NCBI GenBank assembly: GCA_008632985.1
Contig: QPGO01000385.1
Span: 1-35,270, forward strand
Reading direction: 5' to 3'
Origin: Psammoneis japonica
Taxonomy: Eukaryota
DNA: 35,270 nucleotides
Positions 1 through 35,270 of the stretch are shown piece after piece. Made by a program: the position numbers and the translations under genes. Each line of letters opens with the position of its first letter. Position 1 is the stretch's first letter. The notes under the pieces are model-generated. The model was not told where the DNA came from. It saw only the letters and a program-made list of their open reading frames with translations, and did not search any database.

Positions 1-618
1 GAGCTCAAATTTTGGTTTGCTTTTCTTTGGGGACCAAAAATCGCAAAGGGTCTCAGACTGCGGAAGTCCACGGATCCGGACCATGTCCATGTCAATGCAG
101 CAGAGTTCATTGTCATCATGCTCAAGTTGGCAGCCATTGTCGTTCGCATGGAGAACATGACTCCAGAACAGGCGCATGAGTTCTTCCGGGACGGCATCGC
201 CCCACTGCATCTGGTCGTCAGAAGTTGCTCAGACAACATGGCATCAGTCAACCGGACAAACAAAGCCACTTCGAAGTTGCCACAAGGGCAACGATGCACA
301 TGGGTTTTTTGTGAATTACTGCGTCGTGCGCGTGCCAACCTAAATGGCGATCATGTCTTTGGTGACGAGAATTTTGTCGCACATGACATCTCACGACCTT
401 CTGTTTTTGCCCTGATCTCGAATCGTCACCATTCTGAACAGCTGTTTCAGAAGCATCCCTTTCTGAAGACCTGGGACCATTTCCAGCTGAGTCAAGAGCT
501 CTTGCAGCTCCTCTCCTCACAGCTGTCTACCAAGCACAGAACGGCACCCCAGATCCCAAGCGACTTGGGACAGCTCGTTCCTGCCGAATCCATTTCCTCT
601 GCTTTTGCAAGAGCATGA
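1..618 (+). pseudogene. C-terminal RNase H region of the YR-retrotransposon pol (degenerate)
   Basis: ORF 118-618 contains SDNMASVNRTNKATS and NFVAHDISR, resembling the DN...W..K and N..AD..SR motifs of DIRS/Ngaro RNase H. It overlaps the YR ORF. Confidence 0.65.
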
Positions 619-1694
619 AGTGGGATCTAGAAGATCCGGAAATGACTGTGGTTGGCAAGGACCTGAAACATTGCCAATTGGTGCCAGCTGTGCATGCGTC
701 ACATCCAGCAACCGGGGCCACCCTACACTGTGAAAACATTTCCACAGGTGCCATCAAGGAAAGCATCCACGACATCTCCACGTTCGTGTCTCCATTTGGT
801 TCCAACTGTCGGGACGTCCACAAGGACAACAGTGTGGACACCAAAATGGGATGGATCCTCAGGGGAGCATTTGATGAACTCCAACAGTGCGACAAGGTCC
901 CGGACCGACGCGAGTCGTGTGCATTGCTTGTGCAACAACATGCGACTTCAACAGCAGCAGACATGCGAGAAACCGACCCCGACGCAATCGAGGTGGTCCT
1001 CGCTGACTGGTTTGAGATCAGCCCAATGGCAGGCCTGCACAGCATTGAGTGGGCACAGTCCAATGACCACTCAGACCTGGAGAATCCCAGACTCAACATC
1101 TTCGAGGAGACATGCGCGTTCTGCCTCGATGATGTGCGCATCGAGACCAAGGACAAGCACCGATGCACTGGGGCTGATTGCCTCACCCCCAAGCAAGATG
1201 ACATCGAGAGCATGTTTGTTACGTTTCAAGCTCAGAAGAACCTGCAACATGGCGAGGAGTGCCAGTTCACCTTGAACCTCACGGGCACTCACAACTTGGT
1301 CAAGCCGATGCTTCGCGTGATCCAACGCTTCGTACGGGTCCACGGCAAAGATGACAAAACCTGCCCCCTGGCCCTCCATTTTGATCCCAAGGAGAACAAG
1401 TGCCGCCTTGTGACATCCAAGAAAATTGAAGCCCACATGCGCCGAATTGCAGCAGAGGTGTGCCACCTTGATCAGGCAAAGGATAAAAAGGCTGTCAGCA
1501 AATGGTCAGCACATTCCCTCCGTGTTGGAGCCTGCAACATCCTCCATGAGATGAATTTTAGTGCCGAGCAGATTAAGTGGCTGCTAAGATGGCGATCCGA
1601 CGCCTTTGTGGCGTGCCTCCGTAACTGCTTGGGTCTCTCTCAGGCCCATTGCCGAGCCCTCAATAAGGCAGCACCCATGCCGTTCTTTGACTAA
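615..1694 (+). pseudogene. Tyrosine recombinase of the YR retrotransposon; catalytic Tyr apparently mutated to Cys
   Basis: 359-aa ORF with HSLRVGA (H-x-x-R box) and LRWRSDAFVAC, where the C sits at the catalytic Y position. Confidence 0.85.
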
Positions 1695-1965
1695 TTTGTT
1701 TTCTTGCTGTTTGCACATGTCTGTTCCATTTTCGTCCTCTCTGTGTGACATCGTTCGCACACTGTCGTTTTTCTGTGTCAGACATTCAAAATTGAAATTT
1801 TAAAATTTCATCCTAACTTCAGATTCAAACACCACATTCGAGAGGAACATTTGTCTGTTCCTCATGTCAGAAGATGATCTTTTTTTTTTCTGGTTGGCTC
1901 TGCCTCCGATGACATGGGCGCTGTCGCAATGCTTGCAGCATTCCGTGTCGGCAGCATGGTCTGTG

Positions 1966-2215
1966 CACAGTGAAAAAGGGAACCAATTTCTTGGCACTGG
2001 CGATTCCAAGCCCAGTCCCATGTCCTCATTGCTTCACCTGCTGGTGACTGTTTTCATCGTGGCAAACACTGTGAGTCCACACACGGACATGAACATTGTG
2101 TGTGTGCCAGACAACATCCATCTGATTGCATCAATTGACAAGAGACGCTTCCACTGTGCCATGTCATTGGAGTGCAGACAGCCGAGGAGGAGGCAGGGAA
2201 TCTGTGGGATTCTTG
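1966..2215 (+). repeat. 250-bp direct repeat, copy 1 (putative Ngaro B1)
   Basis: CACAGTGAAAAAGGG...GGGATTCTTG recurs at 2454-2703. Confidence 0.85.
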
Positions 2216-2453
2216 TAGCCAAGACTCTAAGCCAAGCAAGGAGAGGACCTCCTTGACTGGACCGAGAGTCACCGCACGAATGTAGCAGCGAAATGGGTTG
2301 AAGGACGGACGACGGACGAGACGAGCGGAAACGAGGCCAGCCCAAGGGATCCCTCATTGTCTGGCAGGATGGGAGACACCATGGCACTGTCGAGGCATCT
2401 CCAAGGAGATGCCAACAATGAAAATTGAAAAACCCACCTCTCCCTCCCCTGCA

Positions 2454-2703
2454 CACAGTGAAAAAGGGAGCCAATTTCTTGGCACTGGTGATTCCAAGCC
2501 CAGCCCCACATCCCAATTGCTTCACCTGCTGGCGACTGTTTTCATCGTGGCAAACACCATGAGTCTGCCTGCGGATGTGAACATCACGTAAATGCTGGAC
2601 ATCATCCATGTGATTGCATCGATTGACAAGAGACGCTTCCACTGTGCCATGTCATCGGAGTGCAGACAGCCGAGGCGGAGGCAGGGAATCCGTGGGATTC
2701 TTG
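2454..2703 (+). repeat. 250-bp direct repeat, copy 2 (putative Ngaro B2, element 3' end)
   Basis: Colinear with 1966-2215; differences are mostly transitions. Confidence 0.85.
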
Positions 2704-2789
2704 AATCGATTGAGCGACAAAACTGACGTTCGGCAGCAACCGGCAAGCTCCCCGCAAAAGAACTCGGCACATGTCCGGTCACGCAGGCA

Positions 2790-4411
2790 GGAAGTTGGTT
2801 ACAAAAGTCCGAACTTTTACAAAAGTTCGAACTTTTTATTTCCACGTAGAAACAACACGGTGGCTACGTGGAGGCACCCTGATTGTCCGTTGTTCTTGCC
2901 ATTGTGGCAGCTGTGACTGCCAGATGTTCATTGCACAAAGGCTTTGTGTGTCACACTGTGTGTCAGTGTTTGTTTGACGTATTTTTTGACCCTGAGACAT
3001 GTCTTCTTGGTCGCATCTGGCATCAAACAGTTCCATTTCGTGACAGTCGAAATCATCACAAGTCGCGCGATCGAGTGAACCAAAACTCTCATGTAGAAGC
3101 AGCACTGAAAATGCGCAGAAAAAAGTTCGGACTTTTGTAACCCCCCCAAAAATCGCCCTTTTCAACCAATGATTTCTCAACCATTGTTCGATGAATGACC
3201 GCCGGAGTTGCTGCAAACAATTGCATCAGTGCATGAGGATTGAGGGCAAATGCTCTGGAATCTAGAGTTGGGAATTTTTTGGCCTAAAAAAATCGAAGAG
3301 AGAGCAGCATCACTCACCTGTTTGATGTTTGATGTGGCAAGTTTGTCCGGCGATGCATGGCGAGACATGAGCAAACAAGACAATGCATGGAGAAGTTGCG
3401 AGAGAAACCAGACTTAGAAATTGCTCGCCTGTTCTGGCTTTGCATCCCATGAGTTCCTACAAGGGAAACACAGAAACACAACGTCAACATGCCGTTCGCC
3501 AAAACTCGCTGACACAAACATGCCGATGCAATGATTCGCAGCTCACTCTGCACCAGCCTTGACGTGTCTGCCGGACCTGCATTTTATTTGCACTGTTGAC
3601 ATGATTCTTCAAGGCGTCAGAGCCACGGTCTGTCATCGTTTGAGTGGCTGGGGCGGACACCATGGTGTCGGGTGATGCGTTCTTGATTTTTTGTGTGATG
3701 ATGAGAAATGAATGAGAATCCAGGATTGGCGAACAACCAGGCCTGCGGGGAGCATTGACCACTTGTCTTTCTTTGTGGGTGTGGGTGTGTGCCGTTGCAT
3801 GCTGCATTGCCTGTGCGCACGCAGGGCCCTGCCGCTGGGGCCAGCATTGTGGCGGCTGAGTGGCGTGGTCACCGCGCCGCACCGGTGACGCGGATGACCA
3901 TTGTGTTTGATGTCTCATGCCATTTTTGGGGCTGTGGCGAGGTGCACGGACACTCTTTTTTTCCAATTCATTGCCACAATGGCGCATCGCACAAACTCAC
4001 TTGTTGTTTGACATGTCTTCCCCAATGGACTGTTTTGTGTGGAATTCATGACAAATTGTCTTTGTTTGTAACTGGGTGCATTTTTCAACATGCCATGCCA
4101 GCAATCCCAATTTTTCAGAACTTTCAAGCTCTCCCGAAAAACCGTGCCACGCACCTGTCGCAGGGAATTTGTCGATTTTTTAGGATGTCCCCACAACCTC
4201 TGATGTCCTCAATGACAATTCCAAGAATCCGAAGAATTCATCTGCACTAAACAACCCACACCCTTTCAAAATCCAAGGGACACACTTTCAAATTCAGACG
4301 GACAACCCGCCCGACTGCCCGACCCCCCGACTGCCGGACCAACACGAAAAAGTCTGCAATCACCAACCACTGAGTGGTCAATGAAAGTTCGAACTTTTGT
4401 CACCAACTTCC
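2790..4411. mobile_element. Non-autonomous DNA transposon (MITE-like) with 28-bp TIRs
   Basis: GGAAGTTGGTTACAAAAGTCCGAACTTT (2790-2817) is the inverted complement of 4384-4411 with 2 mismatches. CA flanks both ends. Extra copies of the TIR core occur at 2818-2835 and, inverted, at 3122-3142. No recognisable transposase. Confidence 0.7.
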
Positions 4412-5070
4412 CAGCTCCGAGTTTATGAAAAAAAAGAGAGAGGAAAAGGAGGAGGGGAGGAGAAAACGCCATGCGTTCAATTCGCGCGTACGATGGACAG
4501 ACGTTTTACGACATGATTCATGCTGCTGCGACAAAAACAAACCAACCATGATGCGGCAACAACCGATGTTTGATCTTGCCACCAAACCTTTTCCTGCCAA
4601 AAATGTCAATGCATGACATCCACATTTTGCTGTGACAAGTGTGTCAATTGCAAGAGACGTGAGATGAAACCCAAAAATGAACAACAAAAGCTCCTTCCTG
4701 CAGCTGTGCCGCTGCCCAGACTGCACATTTTCACAACTTGCACAGCAACAGCCAATGTTCTGTTTTTGCTGCCAAACCTTTCCTGCCATGATTGCTGATG
4801 ATCAGCATGCTGTGCTGTTTCTCTTTGGCAAGTGTGCCAGCGAAAAGAGAAGCACAGCAGGAAAAAACCCAAGCAAGCAGGGCAAATGCAAAGGCCCTTT
4901 GCACGGTTTTGCCACAAAACTCAGGTTCTCAGCTCTCACAGCGTGTGCACTTCAATTTAAGTTTGCACTTGACAGATTGAAGGCTGACTTTCAGCAATCA
5001 GGTGTCAGGCTCTGCTGTGTCACACTGTGCCTGTGAGCAGCAGCGCCAAGGTTGCTTGGCAACCCAGCAG

Positions 5071-5395
5071 CCAGCTCTCTGTGAAAAATGGTTGCAAAAG
5101 GAAAGGATCTGCCTGCTGCAACACAAGAGAAAAGCAATCAAGAGTGCATTTTCCTGTGGTTTTGTGTCAAAGGAAATGTGCTTGTTTGCATTGCTGTGCT
5201 GGCAAGACCAGCTGCGAGGCACAGCCCAGCTGGCCAGCCACCGCCAGCGCAGTGGGTGCTGGCCTCCTCTCATGATGTTGGCATTGGGCCACATCATGCA
5301 GCTGTGCCACTGCAGTCAAATGGCATTTCTGCCAGCTCTGCATGAAAAAATGATTGCAAAAGGAAAGGAGCCATCTGCAGCGCAAGAGACAAGCA
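5071..5395 (+). repeat. Degenerate ~65-bp direct repeat pair (5071-5136 and 5332-5395)
   Basis: CCAGCTCT..TGAAAAA..TTGCAAAAGGAAAGGA...CAAGAGA.AAGCA occurs twice. Confidence 0.55.
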
Positions 5396-6270
5396 GCTGC
5401 CAAGCTCCCCATGGTGGCGGGCTCTGCTTGGAGTGTTGCAGCAGCTGTGCTCTGTGCTGGCCATCCAACAGAGATGAGTGGACCACAATGTTGGCTGCAA
5501 GATGAAAGGACTGTGTTGGTCACAACTGGCACCAAACAAGTGCGGGAAATTTTCCTTTCATCCGAGGAAATTTGGGGGCTGCTGAGAGAGGAGCCCCCCA
5601 TGACCCAAAACCCTGCTCATGCTCACATCTTGATTTCCCCCTCATTGGCTTGTTAAATGAAGAAAACAAAGAGGCTTTCCTCTTTTGTTTTGTTGCACAA
5701 TGTGCGCCAGATTTGCCACACCAATTTGAGTTTTCTGGGCTTGCTTGGAGCAGATCACACTTGAAGAGACCATGGAAGCACATCTTTTTGTCCTTGAGAA
5801 AGTGCCTCCCAATGGTGTCTGCCTCACTCATTGAGTGCATTGCACAAAAAGATGTGTTTTGGCAGCCACAGGCTCTGTGCAAATCAACTTCTAGATGAAA
5901 GGTTCATGACGGTTGCAACCACGCATTGAATCACTGATTGTTTTTTCCTTTTCTTATTTTCTTGTGTTTCCTTGTCTAGGAAATTCAGCGCCAAATGAGG
6001 AATTCCCTGTGATCGAAAACCCACAACAATGCGGTGATTGGCACGTTGACAATGATTCCGTCTGTGGCGTCGCCATCAAATTTGTGCTGGAAAACCATGC
6101 AGGTTTCTGCTTGTCGCCATCAAAATGGAATTGTGTCATTGTCAAATTCCACACAAACCCTGGTGCATTTCCCACACAGTTCACAAAGAGCTGCCTGCAC
6201 AGCTGGACGATTGCCAAGAACTCCGGGGAACCAAATTCATGTAGAAGGAGCACCAGGGCCCCAGTGGAAA

Positions 6271-6549
6271 CAACAGAAATTGAAGGCAAATGGCAAGAAT
6301 TCAAACAACAACTCCTTGCTGCTGTCTAAACAGCAGATGAGTCTCCGCTCAGAGACCGTTGCAGGAGCCGAAAGACATGCAAGTCGGCACAATCGGGCTG
6401 CTGTTGTTGTTCTTGTGAGCCGTGTGGCTCGAAAGCAAACTGCATCACGCGCATGCGCGCGGAACTAAAGAGCACACAAAACTGTGCGCGGCAAACTAAA
6501 ATGGCGCGCGACATTTCGCGCGCACCTAAATCCCATTCAAATCCTGTCA
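6271..6549 (-). repeat. 3' LTR of copia element 1
   Basis: Colinear with 19921-20199; starts TGACAGG right after the PPT on the minus strand. Confidence 0.92.
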
Positions 6550-6555
6550 CTCCCC
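6550..6555 (-). other. Polypurine tract of copia element 1
   Basis: GGGGAG on the minus strand abuts the LTR TG. Confidence 0.8.
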
Positions 6556-6559
6556 AGTT

Positions 6560-7496
6560 TGCTTGAGGAGTCACAGAAACAGATTCAACTTCGGATGGAA
6601 TGAAGTTCCAAAACATGAGGGGACGGAGAAGGTCCCAGATTTGGGAGCAACCCCAATGCTTGCCAAGAATGTCAGCAGGGTTGCGGGAGCCTTCGATGAA
6701 GTGGAACTCAATGCAGCCAGAGGCAATCGCTTCACGTGCATGATGGAATGACAGAGCGGTGTGTCACTTGTGTAACTTGGAGTGCGGGATGGTGGCACTG
6801 TCCACAACCAACTTGTTGTCACCGAACATGTGACCAATGTCATGGATCGGGATGCCGAGGTGACGCAGAGTGATGCGCAGGTCGACAATCTGCTCGACAC
6901 AAGTCCTTGCGGCAACAAATTCAGACCCGCAGGTCGCAGTCTCCACGGTGGCTTGCTTCTTAGAGAACCAATCAGCCAGGAATTTGTTGAGGAAGTGGAG
7001 CATTCCCATGACAGAGCGTCCGGTGAGCATGCAATGACACAAGTTTGCATCGACGCAGTGGGTGGTGGTGACAAACTTGCCAAGGGGCGGTGGAGCGTCC
7101 TTCGGGATCATCTCCTCTGCTTCGCCGTACACGGAATGCATCCATTCACAGGCTGGTGCAGGGAGATCCAAACAGTCGGGCTCTTCCGTGCGAACGCGGA
7201 GAGCGCCGTGTCGCATCTTGGAGAGGCACCCACAGATGCGTTTGGCACGATCCAAGTGGCCTTGACGGGGCGCAGCTTGGAAGCTAGAGAGTGACATGAC
7301 GGCCGTGGCAATGTCAATTCGACCAAGAGACACTGCCCATTGGAGGGAACCAACAAGAGACTGGAACTGTTGAATGCCATCGGGCTCCAGCAGTTCGGAA
7401 GCATCCAGTTTGGGGTGGTCACCCTTTTCCAGAGGGGACAGGACGTTGGTGGCAGGTTTCTCCCCAAACAGTTGTGTGCAGCTGTCGATCATGCGC
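6560..7496 (-). pseudogene. Copia 1 pol, RT C-terminus and RNase H (degenerate)
   Basis: Motifs LEKGDHP, SLVGSLQW, GRIDIATAV, CVDANLCH, WFSKKQATVETATCGSEFVAA and MFGDN. Confidence 0.92.
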
Positions 7497-7635
7497 GGCT
7501 CACGCTGCCCATCTTGTTCCTTCTCCTGCGGCTCTCTAGTGCTGTCTAGAGATCTTCTGGTGATGGACTGGAATGGCTTTGCCAGCGGATGTGCAAGCCT
7601 CATTCCCAAAAAACCCAAGCTGGAACAGCAGGGCC
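7497..7635 (-). repeat. Ngaro repeat B2 (139 bp), element 3' end
   Basis: Near-identical to 7855-7993; the copia RT resumes immediately after it. Confidence 0.92.
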
Positions 7636-7654
7636 AGAGGGCAGGAGAGGTGGG

Positions 7655-7851
7655 AGCATTAAAAACTGTCTAGCAGCTTCTTGCTCTTTGTTGCTCTTCG
7701 GAAGAATGAGTGAAACAAGGGAGAGAAAAAGAGCAAAAACCGTCATTTGCTCGCCAAGCTCGCGCAAGCACGTTCAATTTTGAATTCAAATGGTTTGCAT
7801 GACCCAACGGTCAAAAAACGGGTCATTTGCCTCGTTGTGCTGCACAAGGTG
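7655..7851 (-). repeat. Ngaro repeat A2 (197 bp)
   Basis: Near-identical to 13678-13874; nearly abuts B1. Confidence 0.92.
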
Positions 7852-7854
7852 TTT

Positions 7855-7993
7855 GGCTCATGCCGCCCGTCTTGTTCCTTCTCCTGCGGCTCTCTAGTGC
7901 TGTCTAGAGATCTTCCAGTGATGGACTGGAATGGCTTTGCTAGCGGATGCGCAAGCCTCATTCCCAAAAAACCCAAGCTGGAATGGCAGGGCC
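7855..7993 (-). repeat. Ngaro repeat B1 (139 bp)
   Basis: Near-identical to 7497-7635. Confidence 0.92.
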
Positions 7994-8063
7994 TTCCAGT
8001 GCCACCCACAGTGCCATGCACTCTTGGGAGGGTGGGTGGGTTGAGGCTGGAGGGCTGTGGTGA

Positions 8064-9256
8064 TCAGGCGTCTTGAGGATTCTGAGGAACGTCAGCATTG
8101 GGGTGTAGGACGAAGTCGCCACCGGCGAGCATGTGGCAAGCGAAGTTGCGCATGACTGGTTCTGCTTGCAAATGCAGGTGTCGCAACATTTCGTCGGATC
8201 ACCAGCGGCCTAAGAGCCGAATGAGATCGGTGTCAATGCGGGCACAAAGGAGGGCCATTGCCCCAGTGGCACGAAGACACCAAGCGGCAATGTCTCGGGT
8301 GGTGAAGCCGAGATTAGCCGGACCGAGAGCAGTGATGGCATTGCAAAGCATGCCGGTGATGTCGGCCGGGGACACATGACGCCAGGTGTTGTTTTGAAAG
8401 TAAACACCAAGGGGTGTGTCAGGGAGTGCACCATGGGTGCGCAAGTGTTGGACACGGCAGATGAGGGTGTGAACCGGGCACAGGTGAGGGTGACCGGAAA
8501 GACCGAGCCCTAGAACTTCGCCTTGCACTCCATTTTTCTGCGTGGTAAATGTGAGAGCAGCGAAGGTTGCTGTGTCAAGGTGTGCAAGTGGAGCTTGCAT
8601 GGCAACAAGACAAGTGCCAGCGGACGCAAGGGCAGACATCGGCGAGACGAAAGGGGGTGGTGTCGGATGGTGTTGCGGTGTATTCGCCAGGCCGCAACAA
8701 AAAGAAAAAGGCGATTACAATCATGTCAGCAATGTTCTTGTGTGCCCGGGTCATTGCTGAGGGCTGCGGCGGTCATAATCCATTGCAGCACTGCAATTGG
8801 GACAGGTTTTACGCGGTCTGGGGGTGGATCCTGCTTCTTGTAAAACCGGACTTGCCGGGAAAGACGGAAATTCATTGTGCCTTGGGATGTGTGGCGCGGA
8901 TCCGGGGCCCCCATTGCAGCGAACGTTTGGCCAACCGAACGTACGGCATCTTCAGCGGTTCTTCCATGGACGGGATTGCCCATCGGCACGAGGACTCCTG
9001 TGCGGCAGCGGTGCAAGAAGACTTGGAGGAAGACAACGGGGTCATCAACGTCTTCGAGGAGTGGGTCGATGGCCAAAGATGAGCAGAACTCTCGCCATTT
9101 GTCCCAATGGGCATTGGCGGTGGAGGCTCGTGAAGAGGTGACGCCATGCTGGACGGCGTGTTGAGCAGCATTGAGATCACATATGAACTCAGCTCTGGTG
9201 GAGGCGTCCAGAGACGCCAGGAGAGTGTCTGCGGATGGCAAAAATTGAAATGGCAC
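8064..9256 (-). pseudogene. Tyrosine recombinase of the Ngaro element (frameshifted, with an internal stop)
   Basis: ORFs 8726-9256 and 8199-8639 plus the continuation FTTQKNG, LCPV, CLRATGAMALL, LLGRW*SDEMLRHLH. Inferred changes are CGA>TGA and catalytic Y>H. Confidence 0.9.
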
Positions 9257-11366
9257 AGGAATTCACGGTTGGACAAAGACTGCAGGCGGGAGGCATCGTC
9301 AGCGGCAGTGTTGAGGTGTCCAGGCAAGCAGTCATGCAACCCCAAGTGGCGATGGCAGTGTTGATGGTAGGACTGGTGTCGAAGCAACCGGGAGGCGGGT
9401 TTGACGGTGGTGGTGGCACCTTTGCGTTGCCAATGCATGGTGCCTGAATTGTCGGTGCGTGAAAGGTTAGCACATTCACGGATGTCAAAGCAGTCGGCGG
9501 CGCCGCAGGACTGGATGACACTGCCGGCAAGTTCTAGGTCTGTGTCGGTGATGGGACCTCGCGGGTTGGAGAAAGTGGAGAGTTGACTGCTGACACTTTT
9601 GGGGAAAGGCAGTCGCCACACTGCGGGACCCGCATCTCTCCATTGACAGTGTCGGCAATTGCTGAAATGAGAGTGGCTGCTCTGGGTGCTGTGGTGCTTC
9701 TTGGCATAAGGACGCCGCCTGTGCCATGACCTGCAGCATCATGACAACCGGTGAGTGTTGGTCTTGGTGGAACCAATTCTTGAATGCGAACGGGTCAGGT
9801 GTCTAGGGCAGATTCTAGATCCCGAAAGTCATCTAGTGCGCAGTGCGCAGTGGCGGAGATCCGGACGCGTGAGTCCGGTGTGGTGTGTCGGAGATTTTCT
9901 TGGAGTGCTGAGAAGAGACCCCGGGAACCAGGGATGGCAATGCTCAAAGAGCGCAGCTCTCCCAACAGCTTCTGATGATCAGAGACGGCAGCACGTTTGC
10001 GTGTGCGGAGGAAATCCTTGTGCAGCGTTGTACGAAGTCGGGCATGCCGACGGGGCGTGAGCCGGATGGTCATAGCGTGAGCATCTATGAGCCATCCCAG
10101 GACTTCTTTCTGCATGGACCATGTGGCATCACCCTGGCGGAGCTTCTTGACGGAGACGGGCTCCTTGCAGGTGGCTGGGTCGTGTCCATCGAGTGGGCGA
10201 AAGACGTCATCAAGAGCATGCAGCAGCACACGGTGGACGTTGCGCCGGGCTTGTTTGGATCCTTGCGCAGCGCCAAGGAAGTCATCTACATAGATGTCGA
10301 TGCATTGCAAGCGGCGGCGCCGACGCGGTCGAAGGTGTGGGTTGGGCGTGTCAGGAATGGGCACGGCCTGTGAAGCTGCGGCAACTTGTGGTGGTTGGTG
10401 CTTCAGCAGGGGGCCATCTAAGAGCGCTTCCAGCGGATGTGGCGGCGCTTGGACATTGCGCACCAAATCCAAATTGGTGACATCGGCGACAGTTTCCATT
10501 GATGTGCAGAACAATGGTGGGGAGTTGGCCCAGCCCACAGGCAAGCGTGTTGGAATTGCCACTGATGGTGGCTCACCCGGTTGGCTCGGGAACACTGCAC
10601 CAAGTGTAGGAGCCTGTTCTGGTGCAACTTGCATGTGGCAACAACCATCGGCCAGGTCTATCTTCACAAGATAGACAGTGCCTTTTTCAGGATTGGCAAG
10701 GAGGATGCGGCATAGAAAGCGGTCAAAGGCACGTCCGAATTGCACAGCTTCCATTGCAGCGTTGGGTTGTGTGGAAGTGTTCAGCCCATGGTGGGTGTAG
10801 TCCACGATGGGACGGGGACGTCGACCGTGTTGAGGCACAACGCCAATTGGACTTAGGCGAAGACCGGGGGCGTGCCGCACTTCCTTGTAGGGGACAACAA
10901 CCCAAAAACCTTTTTCGACCACATCAGCCATGTCCTGGTGCAAAAACTCGATGTGTTCGTAGGCGGATTTGTGTGGACCCCTGGAGACACTAGCATCTAG
11001 CTCAGCACACGTCCATGGTGCATCGGCGACGGTGATGGGGGCACCTCGGCACTTGCAGGTGCTCAGAAGTCGATGAGCTGGGTGTTGCTTGACTCAATGG
11101 AGTGGACCCCAATCGCCTCTGCCGCTGTGATGACGCAACAAGCAACTGAGGCCTTTGCAACGCAGTGACGCAGTGTCAATTCGCATGTGCTCACCCAATT
11201 TATCATTGAAGATTGTGGCAGCAACATCCTGTCCACGGGCAGTGGGGCGGGTGCGCTGCCTCTTGAAACTCTCCACAGTCGGGGGTTGTGGATGCGACAG
11301 CGACTCGGCCATCGCGGGTGAAGGCTCTCGGCTCCAAGTCCCCGAACTTGGGCCATTGCCGAAGAC
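9150..11366 (-). pseudogene. Ngaro RT and RNase H (degenerate)
   Basis: RT motifs SPIGVVPQ, RPIVDY, KIDLADG, LPVGWANSP and YVDDFLG; RH motifs HDAAGHG, DLELAG, TDNS..MHWQRKG and NTAADDASR. Confidence 0.92.
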
Positions 11367-13874: not shown

Positions 13875-13876
13875 GG

Positions 13877-21337: not shown

Positions 21338-21357
21338 GTGTGTGTGGACTTCCAACA

Positions 21358-24840: not shown

Positions 24841-24914
24841 TTCGGCGACTCCGTCGCGACGAGTCACCTCCGGTAAAAAACTCAAACGGGCTGCCTGCCG
24901 CGCCACGGCGCTAT

Positions 24915-25364: not shown

Positions 25365-26781
25365 ATGAACAAACTCGGGAAAAACACCTTTGCCCCAACG
25401 CAGGCTGCAATCACCGCTGCTTGCTCTCACAGTCATCCTCGTGGACCCAGCAGAACTGCAGAGCACCAGCAGTCCGGGGCAGATCAGGCACAATGGACTT
25501 GGTGTGCTTGTAGAGTGGCAGCAAAGCCGCAGTCCAAAGAGTGGGTTCAAGCTCTTGGCCGTGAAGACACATGTGTGTGTGTCTTCAGTGACAAAGATCT
25601 TTGAACATGTGGGGTTCTTGACCGTTGACCGTTGAATGGGCATGTCAAGGGATGAGGATCAAGGACAGACTTGGATGCAACCATTGAATGCATGTCTTCA
25701 GCGACAAAAGGCAGCGCAATCAATCCAGACATCCAGCGGCAAGAGGAGACTTGACAGTGACATTAAATTCCTGCCGATGCCTGGTGTTGAATGCACGCAG
25801 ACTTGCCAATGTACAAGTGGAGTGTGTGCGGAGGTCCACGCAGAATTGAAACAGCATTGTCGGTAAATCAACGACGATGATGGCGGTTGCTCAATGGGTT
25901 GACAATGAGCAAGACTGTCAATCCAACAGAAATTGAAGGCAAATGGCAAGAATTCAAACAATGACTCCTTGCTGCTGTCCAAATGGCAGATGAGTCTCCG
26001 CTCAGAGACCATCACAGGAGCCGAAAGACGTGTGAGTCGGTGCAATCGGGCCACTGTCATTGTTCTTGTGAGCCGTGTGGCTCGAAAGCAAACTGCGTCG
26101 CGTGCACACGCGTGGAACTAAAGAGCACACAAAACTGTGCGCGGCAAACTAAATTGGCGCGCGACATTTCGCGCGCACCTAAATCCTGTTCAAATCCTGT
26201 CAGGAAATGCCAAAAAAGTCCGGAATTTCGTGATTTTTTGACAGGCTGGTCCTGATTCTACTACGGTGTGAAGGATTCTGTGCAGTTTCTGGATGTTCCT
26301 GCCTTTTTTGGCAGTTCTGCTGGGACCTGGAACTCCTTCCACCAGTGCGTGAATTTGGTTTTCCGGAGCCCCATTCTTTTGAGGGGCAGCACAGCACGCT
26401 GTCACATGGCACATGCGTGCACTTGCGACATGTCGCCAATGTGAACAATGGTTGGATGCACTGCATGGGCAGTTGCCCTTTTGTGCACATGTGACAGGTT
26501 GTGAGCAGCCATTCCCTTGCCTCTGTGGTGCAGCCCAGAGCCAAGTTGTGTGCAGATTTTGGCCACAGAAGGAGGAGAGGCGGTGGTGCTGGGTGGGCGG
26601 GCACATGATTTGTGGAAAAAGGTGATGGAATGATGTGGGCAAGGAGGGGGGCAGCAGAGCAAACACAGCTTGTTCTGCTGTTGAAAAAACAAAAGATTTG
26701 CATTGTCAGACAGCTCCATGGTTGGCATGAATTGCAAGTTTTGTGGAAGGAAGTTTGAGTGTTGCGCAAGTTGCACTGTGT
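25364..26781 (+). repeat. 1.42-kb direct duplication, right copy (includes an extra copia LTR at 25924-26202)
   Basis: Near-identical to 19361-20780; starts at the right boundary of the Penelope-like element. Confidence 0.93.
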
Positions 26782-26823
26782 CAAAAGGTGAAGTCAAGTC
26801 ACAAAGATGATTCTTGTGCTGAA

Positions 26824-27069
26824 TGACAGAAATTGAAGATGACTGGGGTGGAAGAAAACAATGACTCCTTGTTGCTGTCTAAACAGCAGATGAGCCTCCA
26901 TGCAGAGGCTGTTGCAGAAGCCAAAAGACTGGTGTCATGATGTTGATGCTGCTGTTGTTGTTTTTGTGAGCCAAGTGGCTTGAAAGCAAAACACATTGCA
27001 CACTGCATGCGGAACTGAGAGCACACACAATCATGTGTGACAAACCAAAATCTTGTTCAAATCCTGTTG
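26824..27069 (-). repeat. 3' LTR of copia element 2
   Basis: Shares ACAGAAATTGAAG, GACTCCTTG.TGCTGTCTAAACAGCAGATGAG and TTCAAATCCTGT with the element 1 LTRs. Confidence 0.8.
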
Positions 27070-27618
27070 CTCCCCAGTTTGCTCGAGGGGTCAACAGCAA
27101 CAGATTTGAGGTCAGACTGGTTGAAAGCCTTGGGATCAAAGTTCCAAAACATTGGAGGACAAAGGAGATTCCAGACCTGGAAGCAGCTCCAGTGCTTGCT
27201 GAGGATGTCAGCTGGGTTGCGGGAACCTTCGATGAAATGAAACTCAAGGAAACTGGAGGCAATCACCTCACGCACACACAGTGGAACAAGAGGGCAGTGT
27301 GTTGCTTGTGCAACTTGGAGTGCGGGATGGCAGCATTGTCCACAACTGACTTGTTGTCCCCAAACATGCAACACATTTCATGAGTGGGGATGCCAAGGTG
27401 ATGCGCAGATCAATGATCTGCTCAATGCATGTCCTTGTGGCAACAAACTCAGATCCATGCATGGCAGTCTCAACTGTTGCTTGTTTTTTGGAGAACCAAT
27501 CAGCCGAAACTCATTGAGAAAACAAAGGATGCTGGTGACAGAGTGTCTGGTGAGCATGCAATGGAACAAGTTTGCATCGATGCAGTGTGTCATGGTGATG
27601 AACTTGAAAGTGGCTCAG

Positions 27619-30198
27619 CCTTGGCATGTCATCAGCTGCAATTGGGCACCGGGACTGGCTTCCTCAGGGACGTCCACACCAGCCACCCTCACAGTGAGTC
27701 CCTCTGGTTTGCATCAGTCTGATCTTTTCTCCAATGTGTTGGTGGATGCATCACCATGTCCCAGGATTGATGGAGTGTTGCCTCTGCAACGTGACAATGA
27801 CCAGTTCCTCATGGACGTCGTTTTGGAGTCGTTGCAATTTTCCTCCCAGGAAACAAGGTGGATCAACTGTTGTCATCTGTGCCTCAAGGTGCTCACAATT
27901 TCTGACATTGCTTTGGCAGATGGCCGCCATCTGGATGAGTCTAAAGTCTGCAGTGATCCTGCACATCTCAGCAGTGTCGGCACTCTTGACAATGTTGAAC
28001 AGACTGAACCTTGTCACAAGGCATGGGCTCCCTGGTTTCGGCTTTGCGAAATGTTGTGCAAAGATGGGTCTACAAGTTTATGAGCTCCTTTGGGTGACTG
28101 GTCAGTTCCTCCTTCCCAGATGTGCATGCAAGCTTCTGCCCATTGGTCTCCAGAAGAATTGCATTTGTGTGTGAGATCTCCTTCTGGATTTGACGTTTTT
28201 CTCATCCAAGACACAGTCGCCACATCACTGCATCAGACAGAAACTGTTCCTGCTCCATCAGAATCATCCTTTCCAGTGGAGACAGACTCTGTGGACGATG
28301 GACGTTGGAAATGTGTTCCTCACAGATCGTGTTTGACAGTTGACGCACCACCTCCGTCACCAGAGTTTTTCAGTGACCTTCTGCAAGCACTGTCTCCCTG
28401 GGAGTCCGTCTTTTTCAAGGACACAGAATTCCATGTCTCCCTTTTTGAATTGGTGGATTGCATTGTAACAAATTGACTGACATCAGGCAGTGATGGGTCC
28501 GTGATTCTTCAGGATGCTGCATTTGGGTGGACTGTTGCATTCAATGGACAACCATTGATCGACTGTGCCGGTCCAGTGTTTGGCAGGAATCCATCTTTGT
28601 GCCATGCGGAAGTGTCATGTGGATTTCTCTCCCTGACAAGATTTGTTTTCCGGTTGCTCGAGTGTTGCAAAATGTCATCTTATGAGGGAGTTGATGATTG
28701 GTGCGACAACAAGGCTCTCATTCATGTCATTTCCCGCCCAACTGACAGCCGTCCTTCCATTGATCCTTCACCCCACATGCACCCTGACCCAGACTTTCAC
28801 CTTTGGAAGCATGGTGCTAATGTCTTGTTGTCTGATTGGGACATTGTGAACGAAATCTGTCAGACTTTCATGGATGTCAAAAGTCTTCTAAACACATCCT
28901 CCTCTGGTCAAGCTCCCGCTCTTGAGTGGCCACTCTTGAGTGGGTAAAAGGACATCAAGATCGTCATCATCCGGTTGAAATCCTTCCTCTCAACGCTCAA
29001 ATTAACATGCGTGCTGACAAGCTGGCTGGCCACTTCCAAGGTCATTGTGAGTTTGACATGGCCACAACACTCCCACTCCCTCACTGCCAGTCTCATCTCC
29101 ATCTTCGCAATGGGACCATCACCGCAGGTCTTAAATCTACAGTCTGCCATGCAGCTGGCTGCGGCTCCCGCCCTTCTTGCATGTGTTCGAGAGTGCAATG
29201 ACTGGGATGAATCCACCACAGACAAGATGGGCTGGAAGGTGCATGCCACATTGGTGCAATGACATTCCAAGAAACACGTGTCTGCCGTTAAGTTGATCCA
29301 TGAACTGCTGCCAACAAACAAGATTGCTCACTGATGCAATCCAGTCCGGCCACATCATTGTCTCTCTTGTGACTGTCCAATGGAGGACAGGGATCACATC
29401 CTTTGGTGTCTGGCCAATGAAGCATGGAGACACAAATTCTTGCAGGGTTTACAAAAATGCTGCGACAAGTTTGATGCAATGCCTCCTCTCCGGGATCTTC
29501 TTTTGTCCTCAACAGAAGCATGGTCAACAGTGAGATTGCATGCAATGATGATGTTCCCCAATTGTCACATCCTCTTTGGTGCTCCTGGTCAGACATCAGA
29601 TGGAGACAAGTGTTCAATGGCTGGCATTCTACCCAGTGGAATGTGTTTCAGGAGATGCACCTTCATGACATTGGACTGTTGGACAAATGCAGAAAAAAGA
29701 ACCGCCTGCCTCCCAATTGGGCGGCACAGATTAGGACTCACATTTGGAAATCCTGGTGGGCTGTGGGAGGAGCACAATAAAAAGGTCCACGGTCATGATG
29801 CAGACACCAGGCAGTCAACCTTGAGAAGACAGGCAGAGGCCAAGCTCACGGCTGTGTGTGACAAAAGACAAGAGTGCCTGGCAAAAGACAGAGACACGCT
29901 GATGGATTTGGCAGAGGATCACCGATCCCACTCCACTTTGCGGACAATGAACTGGATTGCAATGGTTGAACCACGGCTGAGAGACAGCCTCAAGAAAGCA
30001 AAGCGCTCTGTGCTTTGTGGCACTCACTCTGTGGCTGGTTATTTTGGCGGGGTGTCACCTTCTGGTGACACCCACTCTGGCCAATCTGTGCAGGCTCCTG
30101 CCACACCAAAAGGTGCACTGGGAGTGTGGGTCAGCCGGCACCAGCCTGGCTGGCAAAGGAGTGACAGCACTTTAAAAACAGATCTGTTTTTTTTTTTT
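27619..30198 (+). mobile_element. 5'-truncated non-LTR retrotransposon (LINE) with RNase H and a CCHC finger
   Basis: 11-bp TSD AAGTGGCTCAG at 27608-27618 and 30199-30209; motifs SDGS, CDNKAL, WVKGHQD, NMRADKLA and CLSCDCPMEDRDHILWC; ends in T12. Confidence 0.85.
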
Positions 30199-31993
30199 AA
30201 GTGGCTCAGGCGCATCTTGCGGAAGCAGCTCTTCCACCTCCCCATGCACAGATTGGGCCCAGTCACACACCGGCTTGGGAAGGTCCGAATGGCTGGGATC
30301 CTCGGTGTGCACTTGGAGGGCACCATGACACATCTTGGAGAGCAATCTGCAGATGCATTTGGCATGGTCTGGGTGACCTTGACGGGTCACTGCATGGGAG
30401 CCAGACAGGGACATGACAGCCGTGGCAATGTCAATGCAACCAAAGGATGCAGCCCATTTTGCAGGGAGCCAATCAAGGACTGGAATTGGTGGATGCCATC
30501 CGGTCTGAGCAATTCAGAGGTGTTGAGCTCAGGGTGGTCTCCCTTGTTAAGGGGTGAAAGCACATCAGTGCGGGGCTTCTCCCCAAAGAGGCACGCGCAG
30601 TTGTCAACCATGCGCTCAATGCACTTGCGAGGAGCAAGGCACAGGGTGCCATCTGGATCACCGGTGAAGTCGCAACCAAGATGGAACTTTAATGGTCCAG
30701 TGCCCTTGAGCTTGAACTTGCATTTCTCCATGAGAGTGTCTGCGCAAGACTGGGGGTCCTTCATGGCAAAGGCCAGGTCATCCACATGCACTGCCGCACA
30801 TTTGCAGTGGTCGCCATTCCCACGCAGCCAGATGTCAGGTTTGGCTTTGAACAGGAAGAAACCTTCGGCACGCAAGCAATTGGCAAAGCATTCATGCCAC
30901 CTGAGGCCAGAGCTGTGGAGTCCATGCAAGGCCTTGTGGATGACAAGGATGTGTCCTTCCAGCCAGCCAAATTCGGGGCCTGCTGCAATGTGCAGAGTCT
31001 CCTTGGTTGCAGCTTTGAGACAGTCATTCCCAATGTCAGTGGTGCAAGTCTCCAGTTCATTGAGTTTGGCTGGGAAGATCATCATTCGCAGGCTGCAGAG
31101 AGACACTGCTCTGGAACAGACACTGTCGATGGGTGCATCTGTGAGGAGGTGTCCATTGGCAACAAGTCCTGCTTTGTGCCATCCATCGTGTTTGACATTG
31201 TAGATGAGATGCACCCCAATCTTCTTGTGTCCTGATGGTGGAGCGCTGGAGTCCTTGCAATGTCCACAGTGGTGGAAGACCTCACACTCATCAAGCTGAG
31301 TCATCTCAATGTCCGTTGCGTCTCCCCACTTGCGGTTGCTGTTGCACTCATCAAGGGTGGCCAAGGCATGCTTGCAGTCACAGGGCACTTCATGCCCGCA
31401 CTTGCATCTTGGCGCAGTGCAAAAGGAGCACAACTTGGCTTTGTTGGCCATGCAGAACAGCTTCTTCTGGTGCAGAGCTGTGGTCTGGGAGCATTTCCAG
31501 CCATCTGTCTTGAGAAAAACCATGTTTGCATGCATGGATGGTGCAGATGATGGGATTGTCCTTGGCAATGATGGCAAGGGGTTCAGACATGATCTCCCCA
31601 TTCTCCCATTCAAGCATGATGTTGCAGCTTGAGCCTTTCCAAGAGGGACCATGGGGTTACAATGGTTCTTCATGCAAGATGATGCGTTGGAACTTCCAGA
31701 GGGTAGAATCCTCATCTTCTTGCTTGATGTGGTGCATGATGTCATTGCAGGTGAGGACTTCCTTGCATTCGTCATTGTTGACAGAGCAAATGAACTTGAC
31801 CAGTTCCGGGTTGTCTCCAATTTTCCAGTCATGGTCTTCAATGGCTTTGACAATGCAGGCTCTGTGGCATTGTCGGTCCTCTTGTGGCTTCATGAGGAAG
31901 GTGCATCTGATGATGTCCTTGGGGTCAAAGACCAGCATTTTGGGCATCCTGATTGCCTCCCCATCTGGTGAATCTGGTGAATCCTTGGAGTCG

Positions 31994-32228
31994 TGTCACC
32001 AAAGATGCATCAAAGTAGCTTGTGTCAGAAAGAGCAAGAGCTCAAGGTTGCAATGGAATGGCAGAAGTCATTGTCAAAAGTTCTCCATGGAGAAATTATG
32101 AGAGAAAACTGAGGAGAGATCTCAACCATCAGATTTGTGAGAAGAGAAGAGATTTGAATCTCAATGAAACAAGCAACACATGGAAATGTCTGAAATGATG
32201 TTGACAAAATGACTTTGACATTTTGACT
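31994..32228 (-). repeat. Putative 3' LTR of copia element 3
   Basis: Lies between the PPT and the copia 2 breakpoint, with plus-strand ends TGTCA...TGACT. The partner LTR is not in the window. Confidence 0.6.
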
Positions 32229-35200
32229 CTCCCTCTCAACTGCAGAGCTGCCAGCCAGACAGACTCTTCTGACCGGATTCAAACAGAGCTTGGACCAACC
32301 CCTTTGTGAACTGATCTGCAAGCTGAGAGTTGGTTCCTGCAGGCTCAACAACAATCTCGAGTGCTTCAACTTTAGTGCGGAACCAATGACAGGGATTTCC
32401 AATGTGTTTGGCACGTGGAGACATCTTCACCATTTTTGCAAACTTGAGACATGCTTGGTTATCCTTGCAGACAATGGAGGAAGGAATTGCGCCATCTTTC
32501 ACATCAGAAAAGGCTTCAGACTTGGTGGCAGTGGGAGCAGAAACATTCTTGCACCCGAGTGCATGACACTGAATTTTTTTCTAAATTTCTCGGATCGGAA
32601 TCAAATCACGCATGCCAGCCGACAGTGTCAGATGTTCTGCTTCCACAGCAGAGAGAGCAATCTGCATCTGCAGCTTGGAGACCCACAAAACAGGACAGTC
32701 GCAATGCAAAATGATGCATCCTGTGCAAGACTTGACACTCACGGTGTCTTGGAAGTTTTCATCACCATGGAGTCCAGCAAAATTGGCATCCACAAAACAA
32801 TCAACTTGTTGGTTATCTCCAGGGCATAGATGGAGGCCCTTGTCCTTGGCACCTTGAAGACAATGAAGAATGTGCTTCACTGCAACAGCATGAGAGTGTT
32901 TGGGAGCACAGGAGAAGCAAGCGGCTTGATGGGTGGCGCACGTGACATCGGGACGGGAGTTTGCCGACAACTGCATGAGCATCCCAACAACAGATCGGCA
33001 ATCCCATGGTTTGGCAAAATCGGCTCCCTCTGAATCAGCATGGCACAGAGAAGCAGTGCATGGTGTGGGAGAAGGACGACAATCTTCCATTCCAGCGGCC
33101 TTGAGGACCTTGTCGGTCAGACCTGGTTGAGCCAGCAGGAACTCCTTGGGTCCAGTCTTGTGAATCTTGACACCAAGGAAGTCACCAACTTCTCCTTCAT
33201 TACAAAGCTCGAAAATGCGATGTTGTTCTTCCTTTTGAATTCCCAGAGCAGTGGTCTTGCGTTCCAGAAGGTTTCCATTGGCACCGGTGAGGACAGCACA
33301 ATCGATGCACACGACATAAATCACACCATCCTTGAAAAACAGACATGGGTCTACCGCTGACTGAACCCACCCTCATTCAAGCAGTCCTTTGCGGAGCTTT
33401 TTGCAGAAGCATTTCGGGGCTTGTTTCAACCCACAGAGCATCTTGAGTAGCTTGAGAATGATGTCAGCACCTGAAGCAGGGCCAAAGCACTTGGGAGGTT
33501 CAACACAAATGTCTTTCACAACATCAGCTTGTGCAAACGCATTTGTGCAGTCGACTTGACGAGTTGTCCACCCTTCTTGCAATGCAGTGCTCAACAATGG
33601 ACGAACAGTCAACCACTGGACCACTGGAGCACAAGTCTTGAAGCAGTTGACTCCCTCTTGCTGCAAATCACCACGACAACAAAATCAAGCCTTGAATTTC
33701 AGCGGAGCACCGTCGGGTGAGCGTTTCAACTTAAATGCCCACATTGACTTCAACACATTCACAGAGGAATCGCGCTTGACAAATTTCCAAGTTTCATGAT
33801 GAACAAGTGCGGCCACTTTGGTCTTCATGGCCTCAACGCATTGCTTGGCAAACTCACCCGTGAGAGCTTCTCGCACATTTGGCGTGTCATCATTTTTCTT
33901 GGCCTTGGCAGTGTAGACACGAGGGTCTTGAATGCCCAATTGTCCACTGTCATAGCAGGTCTAGATCTCAGCAAGACAAGTGAGCTGGGGATGGTGTCCT
34001 CCAGCATCCAATGGCTCAACTGAGGCTAAATGGACTTCATCGGCAAAACAAGTTGTGGTTCGCCTGCCTTTGTTTGATCTTTGTGAGCGACACACGTTCT
34101 GCTTAGTTGTGGGTGGGACTGGGACATCTGGAGCTGGGACTGAGATGTCCAATGACTCCGTGCCAGGTTGATGTGGCGAGTGCACAGGAGGCATTGAATG
34201 ACCAACTGCTGACTCGCTCGTTGATGGATTGGGGTTTTGCGGTGGCTGCGATGGTGGTTCCTGGGGTGGCACCAATGGCAAGTTGTCAGAATTCAATGGC
34301 ATTGAAGCATTGGGATGTGCAGATGGTGGTGGTTCAATGACCGGAGTGATGGGCTGCAAAGATTTCATTGCGGCAGGCTGCTGATGATGTGCACTCCTGA
34401 CAAAATGCTCACGTTCTTCATGTCACCATTTCTGCTTGAGTTCTGCAGGAGTGAGCCAATCGTCTTGAAGAAACAATTGCATGTTGCTCAAATCCAGTGG
34501 CATCTGAATGACATTTTCCAAACAGAGCTCTTCCCAGTGTTGGTTGAGGGAACCGTGGTAAAGAGATCGTCGAATGCCACATGACACTGAGGAGCAATGG
34601 ACCCGGCATTCAGGTTCAGGACCAGCAGAACCTCACTGGCGTGAACCAAACTGAGACCAAGAAAAACACCACACCATGATCTTGGTTGCCAACGCGGCAA
34701 TTTCTGACCTTGCTGCAACTTGGGATCCAGGATGTAGACAGGACAGCCCCAAGCATGCAAATCAAGCAAACGGTGGCATGGGATGGTGGATCCAGTAAAA
34801 ATGTCGGCAGGACAAAGCCCATTTGATCCCGGAGTGTTGTTGTAGATGTGGGTGGCACAGTTGACTGCCACAGGCCATGGGGAGCTGTCGATGCCACCGC
34901 GCCAATGGATGGAGGCATGGAGGATCATGGCTTGTGCCACATTTGATGTGGAACACATGGGCCACTCAGCAATGCTGTTCTGGTGATGGGCGTTTGTTCC
35001 ACAATGGTGGACACATTGCTGAGATTCACGGATGTGGGCAAAAAACTTGTTTGCCTTGAAAGCACCATTGTCTGTGAGGTGCTCCTGCATGATGACGCCA
35101 TGACTGAGAGCCATCTGCTCACAACCTTGTTTTGCCTGTGTCATCTCAACTGCAGAGAAACCAACTTGATGCTCAACGTGCATGAACCCAGAAGCATGAT

Positions 35201-35270
35201 CAATGAAAATGCAGCCGGCAACATGCTGCTGAGAGGAGGGTTTGCCGCAGGAATTGCAGGTGCAACCCCC
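31994..35270 (-). mobile_element. Copia element 3 (different lineage), 3' portion: IN, RT, RH and 3' LTR; continues beyond the window
   Basis: IN motifs TDNGAF, AHHQNSIAE and WGCPVYILD; RT motifs WAFKLKR, APVVQW and CGLKQAP; RH motifs FVDANFAG, WVSKLQ and QLADQFTKGL; PPT GAGAGGGAG at 32229-32237. Confidence 0.9.

Follow-up and report, generated by a model that had tools for sequence, protein, structure and literature searches.

Repeat-induced point mutation (RIP) of fungi is triggered by duplication, involves a RID-type methyltransferase and takes place at a premeiotic stage. For a signature that erases TpA, a full-text literature search, in which subscription journals were not covered, found only one prior description, a preprint on Bigelowiella natans, in which the integrated DNA of giant viruses and virophages is hypermutated at TpA (Mettrop et al., bioRxiv 10.64898/2026.01.13.699255). 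According to this preprint, 231 of the 302 nuclear point mutations in 15 mutation-accumulation lines fell in two integrated viral regions, and 230 of these 231 were A>G or T>C, all of them at TpA (10.64898/2026.01.13.699255). The rate is given as ~6e-7, ~1000-fold over that of the rest of the genome, and only some lines were affected; also, TpA-poor, CpA+TpG-rich windows cluster in the B. natans genome and are enriched for transposon domains (10.64898/2026.01.13.699255). The authors propose an ADAT2-like adenosine deaminase, by inference (10.64898/2026.01.13.699255). The subject here is a stretch of 35,270 nucleotides of Psammoneis japonica (contig QPGO01000385.1, positions 1 to 35,270; hereafter, the window), in which nested retrotransposons have lost most of their TpA, very probably through a real TpA to TpG/CpA hypermutation acting after integration. 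An earlier note on this DNA, which proposed such a process, knew of no characterised pathway for it; this statement has been overtaken by the 2026 preprint, in which TpA-only A:T>G:C change was measured in B. natans, likewise with no enzyme identified.

The window (52% G+C, with a single N gap at 23444–23767) comprises a nest of dead retroelements, present in multiple copies, from a diatom-like alga: three Ty1/copia elements (A, B and C), two DIRS-order-like elements, a miniature element resembling terminal-repeat retrotransposons in miniature (TRIM), and an open reading frame (ORF) for a possible recombinase. As the earlier note had remarked, TpA is strikingly rare in this DNA: 309 TA steps are present versus 1985 expected, an observed/expected ratio (o/e) of 0.16, with CpA at 1.58, TpG at 1.56 and CpG at 0.65, and the remaining dinucleotides lie at 0.90–1.20 (AA, 1.20; GA, 1.05; dinucleotide counts over the whole window). 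The deficits of TA (-1676) and CG (-859), amounting to -2535, are balanced by the surpluses of CA (+1190) and TG (+1229), amounting to +2419. RIP would leave C:G>T:A changes and TpA enrichment; here TpA is depleted 6-fold and CpA and TpG are enriched. TA o/e is 0.00–0.35 in 34 of the 36 one-kb bins, the exceptions being 23001–24000 (0.91), which contains the N gap, and 24001–25000 (0.49); at a 200-bp scale, TA is normal only at about 23001–23200 and about 24001–24200. These normal-TA patches (22850–23250 and 24000–24200) flank the N gap inside an otherwise depleted element, and may be either tracts that truly escaped or a chimera joining mutated to unmutated copies.

As a baseline, 80 related copia loci from public metagenomes have a median TA o/e of 0.69 (range, 0.49–1.02), a set biased to unmutated copies because the search patterns contained Tyr and so selected against low-TA copies. 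These relatives were also considered as further cases of the same process and set aside, as none has a TA o/e below 0.49, which after a Tyr-biased search is not evidence of absence. The erasure of TAA and TAG has resulted in long open frames in all six frames of the window, namely 49 ORFs of 150 aa or more and, counted from stop to stop, 166 frames of 90 aa or more. A Pfam search of these 166 frames found no host gene: most frames are without a match, only three RVT_2 and one SH3_retrovirus matches lie above or near the cut-offs, and sub-cut-off matches to Abhydrolase_3, GTP-eEF1A_C, MCM_N and other families were treated as chance, in frames opened by the loss of TAA and TAG.

The direction of the change is evident from conserved tyrosines. 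As Tyr is encoded by TAY, Cys by TGY and His by CAY, replacement of conserved Tyr by Cys or His means that the change runs from TA to TG or CA, not the reverse. In copia homologues, Tyr makes up 3.0–4.8% and Cys 0.4–1.9% of residues, and in the 25 full-length ones (48–60% identical) 3.2–4.3% and 0.6–1.3%, versus 0.2% Tyr, 4.0% Cys and 5.8% His in P0001, the copia frame of the window (1112 codons). Where Tyr is present in at least 70% of the 25 homologues (22 alignment columns), the window carries Cys 14 times, His six times, Phe twice and Tyr never; in the same alignment, other residue types are retained in 64–100% of their columns. A larger set of 92 copia codons (Tyr in at least three of five homologues, tblastn), in which overlap between segments in different frames causes a few sites to be counted twice, comprises 51 Cys, 20 His, 7 Tyr, 7 Phe and 7 others. 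The same tendency is seen at 13 conserved Tyr sites of the retroelement nested in copia element A (6 Tyr, 4 Cys and 3 His) and at the five of the ORF at 615–1682, which read His, Ser, His, Cys and Cys, with no Tyr. Pooled over these three unrelated families, 110 conserved-Tyr codons have become 57 Cys and 25 His, with 13 remaining Tyr; thus, 82 of the 110 polarised sites agree with the proposed TA to TG/CA substitution.

All the mutated motifs that the earlier note had listed were located, on the minus strand: CVDD at 14039–14050, HVDD at 30777–30788, CVDANLCH at 7034–7057, and CGSEF at 6917–6931. An HGSEF is present as well, at 27445–27459 (minus strand), and one YVDD is still intact at 10281–10292 (minus strand). 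Its further claim, that the catalytic Tyr of both recombinases had been lost, finds partial backing: in the ORF at 615–1682, a possible recombinase, a homologue-conserved Tyr near the C-terminus (codon at position 1614) is Cys, and a second recombinase was not located in the window.

The timing of the change can be read from terminal repeats. The two long terminal repeats (LTRs) of one insertion are copied from a single template and start identical. The LTR pair of copia element A (279 bp) now differs by nine CA/TG doublets, one TA/CA single, seven CG singles and one transversion, and that of the TRIM-like element by two CA/TG doublets, two TA singles (18407/18739, TA versus CA; 18424/18756, TA versus TG), one CG single and one other transition; the matching differences that the earlier note had quoted for the two pairs are present. 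When these are pooled with two split-repeat pairs of the nested element (four pairs and 725 aligned bp in total, of which the copia A and TRIM pairs are flanked by target duplications), 54 mismatched bases are found: 14 CA/TG doublets, one CG/TA doublet, six TA singles, 15 CG singles and three others. Of these bases, 51 lie at TA- or CG-derived steps. The CG single-hit rate predicts only ~0.9 CG-derived doublets out of 14, and hence the CA/TG doublets descend from TA, each being one ancestral site changed in both copies on opposite strands. As the LTR pairs with target duplications have changed independently, the process acted after integration, on chromosomal DNA, and on both strands, in agreement with what the earlier note had supposed.

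Within the repeat pairs, A/G differences depend strictly on the 5' neighbour. Besides the doublets, they occur at 7 of 307 sites after T, at none of 421 after A and at 1 of 320 after G; the 23 of 425 after C constitute the CpG class. The change is therefore TpA-specific, with no changes at ApA, which excludes both a WA-type polymerase signature and an ADAR-like U/A preference. In phase II of antibody hypermutation, A within WA motifs is the base that Pol-eta mutates, and such a polymerase would thus change A after A too. Error-prone repair of methylated DNA, with a Pol-eta-like polymerase filling frequent patches, would be in keeping with the CpG decay in the same DNA (CG o/e 0.28–0.78) and with the ~2:1 sense-strand bias of A>G at TA, which resembles the WA signature. 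However, the absence of change at ApA, as opposed to 7 of 307 residual TR sites plus 14 doublets, the equal TA loss at 2.6-fold different CpG loss, and a saturation far above polymerase error rates make this explanation highly improbable.

Double hits at one site are rare: no conserved-Tyr site reads Arg, and the repeat pairs hold a single CG/TA doublet. At 7671–7672 and 13694–13695, one copy has TA and the other CG; this is possibly a double hit on both strands, making a new CpG. Once either strand has been converted, the site is no longer TpA and a second hit is barred, which explains why the end product is TG or CA and hardly ever CG. The strand outcomes along copia element A form 18 Cys/His runs versus 19 expected; the choice of strand looks independent at each site, with no indication of strand-coordinated tracts or of processive action on one strand at ~100-bp spacing.

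Flanking bases appear to modulate the change. Compared with the 80 baseline loci, surviving TA is enriched 2.2–2.7-fold in CTAG, CTAA/TTAG and TTAA, and depleted in ATAT (0.04x) and ATAC/GTAT (0.26x), which suggests RTAY as the most, and YTAR as the least, favoured substrate (R, purine; Y, pyrimidine). Among the 92 copia codons, Tyr to Cys prevails over Tyr to His (51:20, p 0.0003), the Cys:His ratio being 31:7 after a pyrimidine and 20:13 after a purine. Also, TG o/e on the sense strand exceeds CA o/e in all seven oriented segments (baseline medians, 1.19 and 1.15). This sense-strand excess may stem from a 3'-pyrimidine preference or from a non-template-strand bias. In a trinucleotide comparison with 49 baseline loci, which are only ~60% identical in protein, TGY was gained far more than TGR, matching a 3'-pyrimidine rule; as a test of which flank base sets the preference, this comparison was rejected as too noisy, with opposite-strand products off the rule.

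The sense-strand excess bears on the possibility that retroelement RNA or cDNA was deaminated by an ADAR-like or APOBEC-like enzyme and integrated afterwards. All the identified elements are retroelements, and both the 7/7 excess of TG over CA and the 51:20 ratio of Cys to His are what editing of sense RNA predicts. Editing before integration, passed on through reverse transcription, would however leave identical LTRs in each copy, and the copia A and TRIM LTRs, which have target duplications, carry independent opposite-strand changes at the same sites. Moreover, Cys:His falls to 20:13 where the flank type is equal on both strands. ADARs are not known to occur outside animals. The 0/421 at ApA is also unlike the U/A 5'-neighbour preference of ADAR (as cited in 10.64898/2026.01.13.699255). 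Pre-integration editing is thus very unlikely.

The extent of the change is close to saturation. In a simple likelihood estimate over the four repeat pairs, a fraction of 0.73 of TA sites is mutated per copy, i.e., 1.3 hits per site, and a hand calculation for the copia A pair alone gives a higher share. Changes outside TA, CG, TG and CA amount to 0.27% per site, so that the TA ratio is ~475, a figure relative to ordinary sites of the same repeats and not to TA sites in host genes. CpG changes amount to ~0.2 per copy in the same pairs. The nested element is necessarily younger than the copia element A that contains it, and it is less mutated: TA o/e is 0.21 versus 0.10, and TA is retained at 6 of 13 Tyr sites versus 7 of 61 in the host element (Fisher p 0.008). 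Mutation therefore accumulates with age.

This magnitude is relevant to a reading without targeting, according to which a TpA mutational bias operates genome-wide, selection keeps TA in genes, and transposons display the neutral outcome. The window consists of repeats only and nothing in it contradicts this reading. Against it, a rate ~475 times the background at every TA would impose a very heavy load on genes, normal-TA patches occur inside an element, the younger nested element retains Tyr at 6 of 13 sites, and in B. natans the process is reported to be limited to particular regions and some lines (10.64898/2026.01.13.699255). A purely untargeted bias is therefore distinctly unlikely.

CpG decay runs in the same DNA, as indicated by the replacement of Arg (CGN) by Cys, His or Gln at conserved sites and by the 15 CG singles of the repeat pairs. 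CG o/e is 0.28–0.78 in the mutated elements and 0.96 in the DIRS-like element. Copia elements A and B have CG o/e values of 0.73 and 0.28, a 2.6-fold difference, at TA o/e values of 0.10 and 0.05; CpG loss thus differs at similar TA loss, and TA loss is separable from CpG decay. Methylation history and TA erasure seem to be uncoupled. This uncoupling, together with the TA to TG/CA polarity, upholds the claim that neither CpG deamination nor RIP explains the loss of TpA. Diatom transposons are reported to be CpG-methylated, and RID-related DNMT4 genes without an assigned function are described as widespread in diatoms (PMC9998398); these genes are a lead only.

The possibility that TA is lost only in the assembly was weighed using contigs built from the reads of one sequencing run (X1), which cover all 30 bins of positions 1–19300. 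These read-derived contigs reproduce the sequence of the window: 2321 of the 11341 X1 contigs on 1–19300 are at least 99% alike, and three of the eight listed pieces have no differences, at a depth of 27–30. A base modified at TpA in repeat chromatin and misread, while the real DNA is still TA, would mimic the random CA or TG outcome at each site; in addition, the window was scaffolded and includes an N gap, and no library type is on record for X1. The exact matches at ~30x, the dependence of TA loss on nesting order and flank context, and the fact that a like signature arose as heritable mutations in Illumina-sequenced B. natans lines all speak for real mutation, and such an artefact is extremely improbable.

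The same contigs inform on copy number. Summed X1 depth per bin ranges from 187 to 135809 (30 bins), far above the ~27–30 of exact matches, and therefore all of 1–19300 is multi-copy. In the copia A family parts at 5797–7728 and 13525–19300, the summed depth is 20000–135809, which suggests hundreds to thousands of diverged copies of this family. For positions 9000–18000, no RNA data set was listed as carrying this DNA, a result without bearing on expression.

Taken together, a process on chromosomal DNA very probably turned nearly every TpA into TpG or CpA after integration, each change being an A:T>G:C transition at a TpA step on either strand, at several hundred times the mutation of ordinary sites. 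Most likely, the agent would be a deaminase that takes the adenine of 5'-TA-3' DNA to inosine (read as G), apparently with RTAY favoured over YTAR; its probable role is genome defence, with silent repeat chromatin as the target. The process may be the same as that seen directly in the B. natans mutation-accumulation lines. That the hypermutation itself is real and followed integration we hold with high confidence; the full statement, which includes targeting to repeats and deaminase chemistry, is favoured with moderate confidence.

Other protist lineages have enzymes that modify thymine, and hydroxymethyluracil with a bias to TpA. The T of TpA might hence be modified, for example by a TET/JBP-type dioxygenase yielding 5-hydroxymethyl- or 5-formyl-uracil, which mispairs with G and gives T>C. 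As TpA is palindromic, T>C on one strand equals A>G on the other, and all the counts given here fit both chemistries. T oxidation is nevertheless unlikely, as the near-saturation (~73–97% of TA sites) would require a strongly mutagenic intermediate and the sole published study of the signature favours adenosine deamination, likewise by inference (10.64898/2026.01.13.699255).

Several observations weigh against parts of the deaminase-and-targeting interpretation, or limit what the window contributes to it. A deamination and T>C chemistry leave identical footprints at the palindromic TpA. The window has no host gene or single-copy DNA, so that targeting to repeats is not shown within it. The normal-TA patches at 23.0–24.2 kb adjoin the N gap and may be an assembly chimera, and X1 may be the assembly's own sample, in which case its agreement with the assembly is not independent. 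The flank preference is tentative, with a Fisher p of 0.066 in the Tyr-codon test, and the trinucleotides are partly contrary to the flank rule (ACA, +0.2 per kb, no gain; CCA, +13.5 per kb). Finally, a direct repeat of 1420 bp, 99% identical between its left copy (19361–20780, plus strand) and its right copy (25364–26781; self-comparison), is the youngest pair in the window, and among its 12 differences changes at CG (10) outnumber those at TA (2). The loss of TA in this repeat predates its duplication and is silent on timing: both copies are already TA-poor, with 11 and 9 TA, and use of this pair as a clock for TA loss was therefore ruled out. The repeat brackets the DIRS-like element exactly, and within it lie the 5' LTR of copia element A, that element's target duplication and 580 bp of flanking DNA. 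Its origin may be duplication of the target on integration, segmental duplication or faulty scaffolding close to the N gap.

Elements A, B and C are Ty1/copia LTR retrotransposons, with RVT_2 E values of 1e-17 to 2e-14 and a collinear match to 1845-aa copia polyproteins. Element A lies at 6271–20199 on the minus strand, as delimited by tblastn of five unmutated homologues, RVT_2, LTRs and target duplication; its polyprotein is matched at 18375–13853 and 7495–6605 and RVT_2 at 13685–14473, and its coding part has a sense-strand TA o/e of 0.10. The 279-bp LTRs comprise the 5' LTR at 19921–20199 (minus strand; self-comparison and inspection of the ends) and the 3' LTR at 6271–6549 (minus strand), which is 90.3% identical to it, and the element is flanked by a perfect 5-bp target duplication, GGAAA, at 6266–6270 and 20200–20204. 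Element B (26826–31990, minus strand) is 5'-truncated, with tblastn segments at 31986–30193 and 27605–27135 and RVT_2 at 30390–31889; TA and CG o/e are 0.05 and 0.28. It contains a 2.6-kb insertion (27606–30192) without a recognisable domain (TA, 0.02–0.13; CG, 0.28–0.42). Fragments of element C (33376–35270, minus strand; TA o/e 0.09) include RVT_2 at 33376–33684 and SH3_retrovirus at 34491–35270, and run off the window end. In a language-model look-alike search, the copia integrase was nearest to clusters labelled Bacillariophyta, with few labelled members, and the label diatom-like for the source of the elements is thus weakly supported.

The nested element (7495–13876, minus strand; 6.4 kb) lies inside copia element A, and is a retroelement whose direct repeats are split; it encodes a polyprotein of the RT-RNase H type and contains the ORF P0002. 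Its repeats are r197 (13678–13874 and 7655–7851) and r139 (7855–7993 and 7497–7635); homologues at 55–62% identity span 8797–11291, and the RVT_1 match is weak (E 0.019). P0002 (11097–13796, minus strand) is a 900-codon open frame with Ala/Pro/Gln-rich stretches and without a Pfam match; it may encode a gag-like protein of the nested element, or be open merely through the loss of stop codons. The TRIM-like miniature LTR element of 447 bp (18373–18819, plus strand), also nested in copia element A, has 110-bp LTRs with TG..CA ends at 18376–18485 and 18708–18817, and CGTC on each flank. X1 contigs include the empty sites of both: one joins 7494 to 13877 and others skip from 18372 to 18820. The nested and TRIM-like elements are therefore true insertions into a member of the copia family.

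Elements of the DIRS order have split direct or inverted terminal repeats, a reverse transcriptase and a tyrosine recombinase, and lack target duplications. The repeat architectures of the nested element and of a second element at 20778–25366 fit this order, and a Pfam search found no recombinase domain inside either. The second, DIRS-like element (plus strand) contains the N gap and has 111-bp terminal inverted repeats and an internal 453-bp repeat: 20778–20888 is inverted to 25364–25254 and to 21337–21227, and 20888–21340 is in direct repetition with 24915–25367. No other part of the window is so little mutated (TA o/e 0.39). A reverse transcriptase-like motif is readable at ~24.0 kb, without a Pfam match. 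The ORF at 615–1682 (plus strand) belongs to a 360-aa protein family with 69 homologues; on the basis of a Phage_integrase match below the cut-off (E 0.16), it may encode a tyrosine recombinase.

If real, the process would be a second hypermutation-based genome defence in eukaryotes beside fungal RIP, with opposite chemistry, and its signature would be present in two distant lineages of the stramenopile–alveolate–rhizarian group, one of them the ecologically dominant diatoms. A pathway shared by diatoms and chlorarachniophytes is conceivable but doubtful. This would be an ancient defence based on a DNA adenine deaminase specific to TpA, in effect a base editor of natural origin, which is brought to silent repeat chromatin; such a deaminase would erase the coding capacity of transposons and integrated viruses without stop codons or AT-rich isochores. 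The annotation of repeat-rich algal genomes would be affected, as mutated elements stay open in six frames, lose Tyr and escape Pfam models, and gene finders would over-call TA-erased DNA; the reading of substitution rates and GC content would be affected as well. The signature also points to an enzyme able to convert A:T into G:C at one defined dinucleotide of double-stranded chromosomal DNA, which is of direct interest for base editing. The contribution of the window is a site-by-site polarised footprint across three unrelated families of elements, an estimate of the rate based on repeat pairs with target duplications, and two features that any candidate enzyme has to show, namely a flank preference and an immunity rule.

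Among known systems, methylated-CpG decay is present in the window as CG singles and Arg losses, but it cannot remove TpA, and its extent (CG o/e 0.28–0.96) is independent of TA loss. ADAR and APOBEC editing resembles the process in the window in being deaminase-style and in causing context-specific transitions on selfish nucleic acids; in contrast, the substrate in the window is integrated chromosomal DNA and the context is strictly T before A. RIP in Neurospora and other Pezizomycotina, the functional analogue, is, as described, likewise transition-only and dinucleotide-specific, riddles repeats after their entry and kills transposon coding (PMC2621366). The two differ in that RIP changes CpA to TpA by C:G>T:A, making DNA AT-rich and creating stop codons, whereas in the window TpA becomes CpA or TpG, DNA becomes GC-richer and TAA and TAG are lost.

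The closest likeness is to B. natans. As the preprint describes it, change there is also A:T>G:C only and at TpA only, yields both TpG and CpA and exceeds the background by two to three orders of magnitude (for the window, with ordinary sites of the same repeats as background); the long-term footprint, scarce TpA with abundant CpA+TpG, is shared too, with transposon-type Pfam domains enriched among the TpA-poor genes. The B. natans process was observed live in a rhizarian, in two viral insertions that still retain much of their TpA (Rho 0.45), whereas that in the window is deduced from the sequence of retrotransposons in a diatom-like stramenopile, is near saturation (TA o/e 0.05–0.24 in most elements) and is accompanied by CpG decay. 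For B. natans, restriction to foreign DNA is reported, whereas the window holds repeats only. A process of this kind has thus been described once before, in 2026, with a proposed mechanism, and the window would be a further case: it may show where such a process leads in the long run, in another lineage and on retrotransposons.

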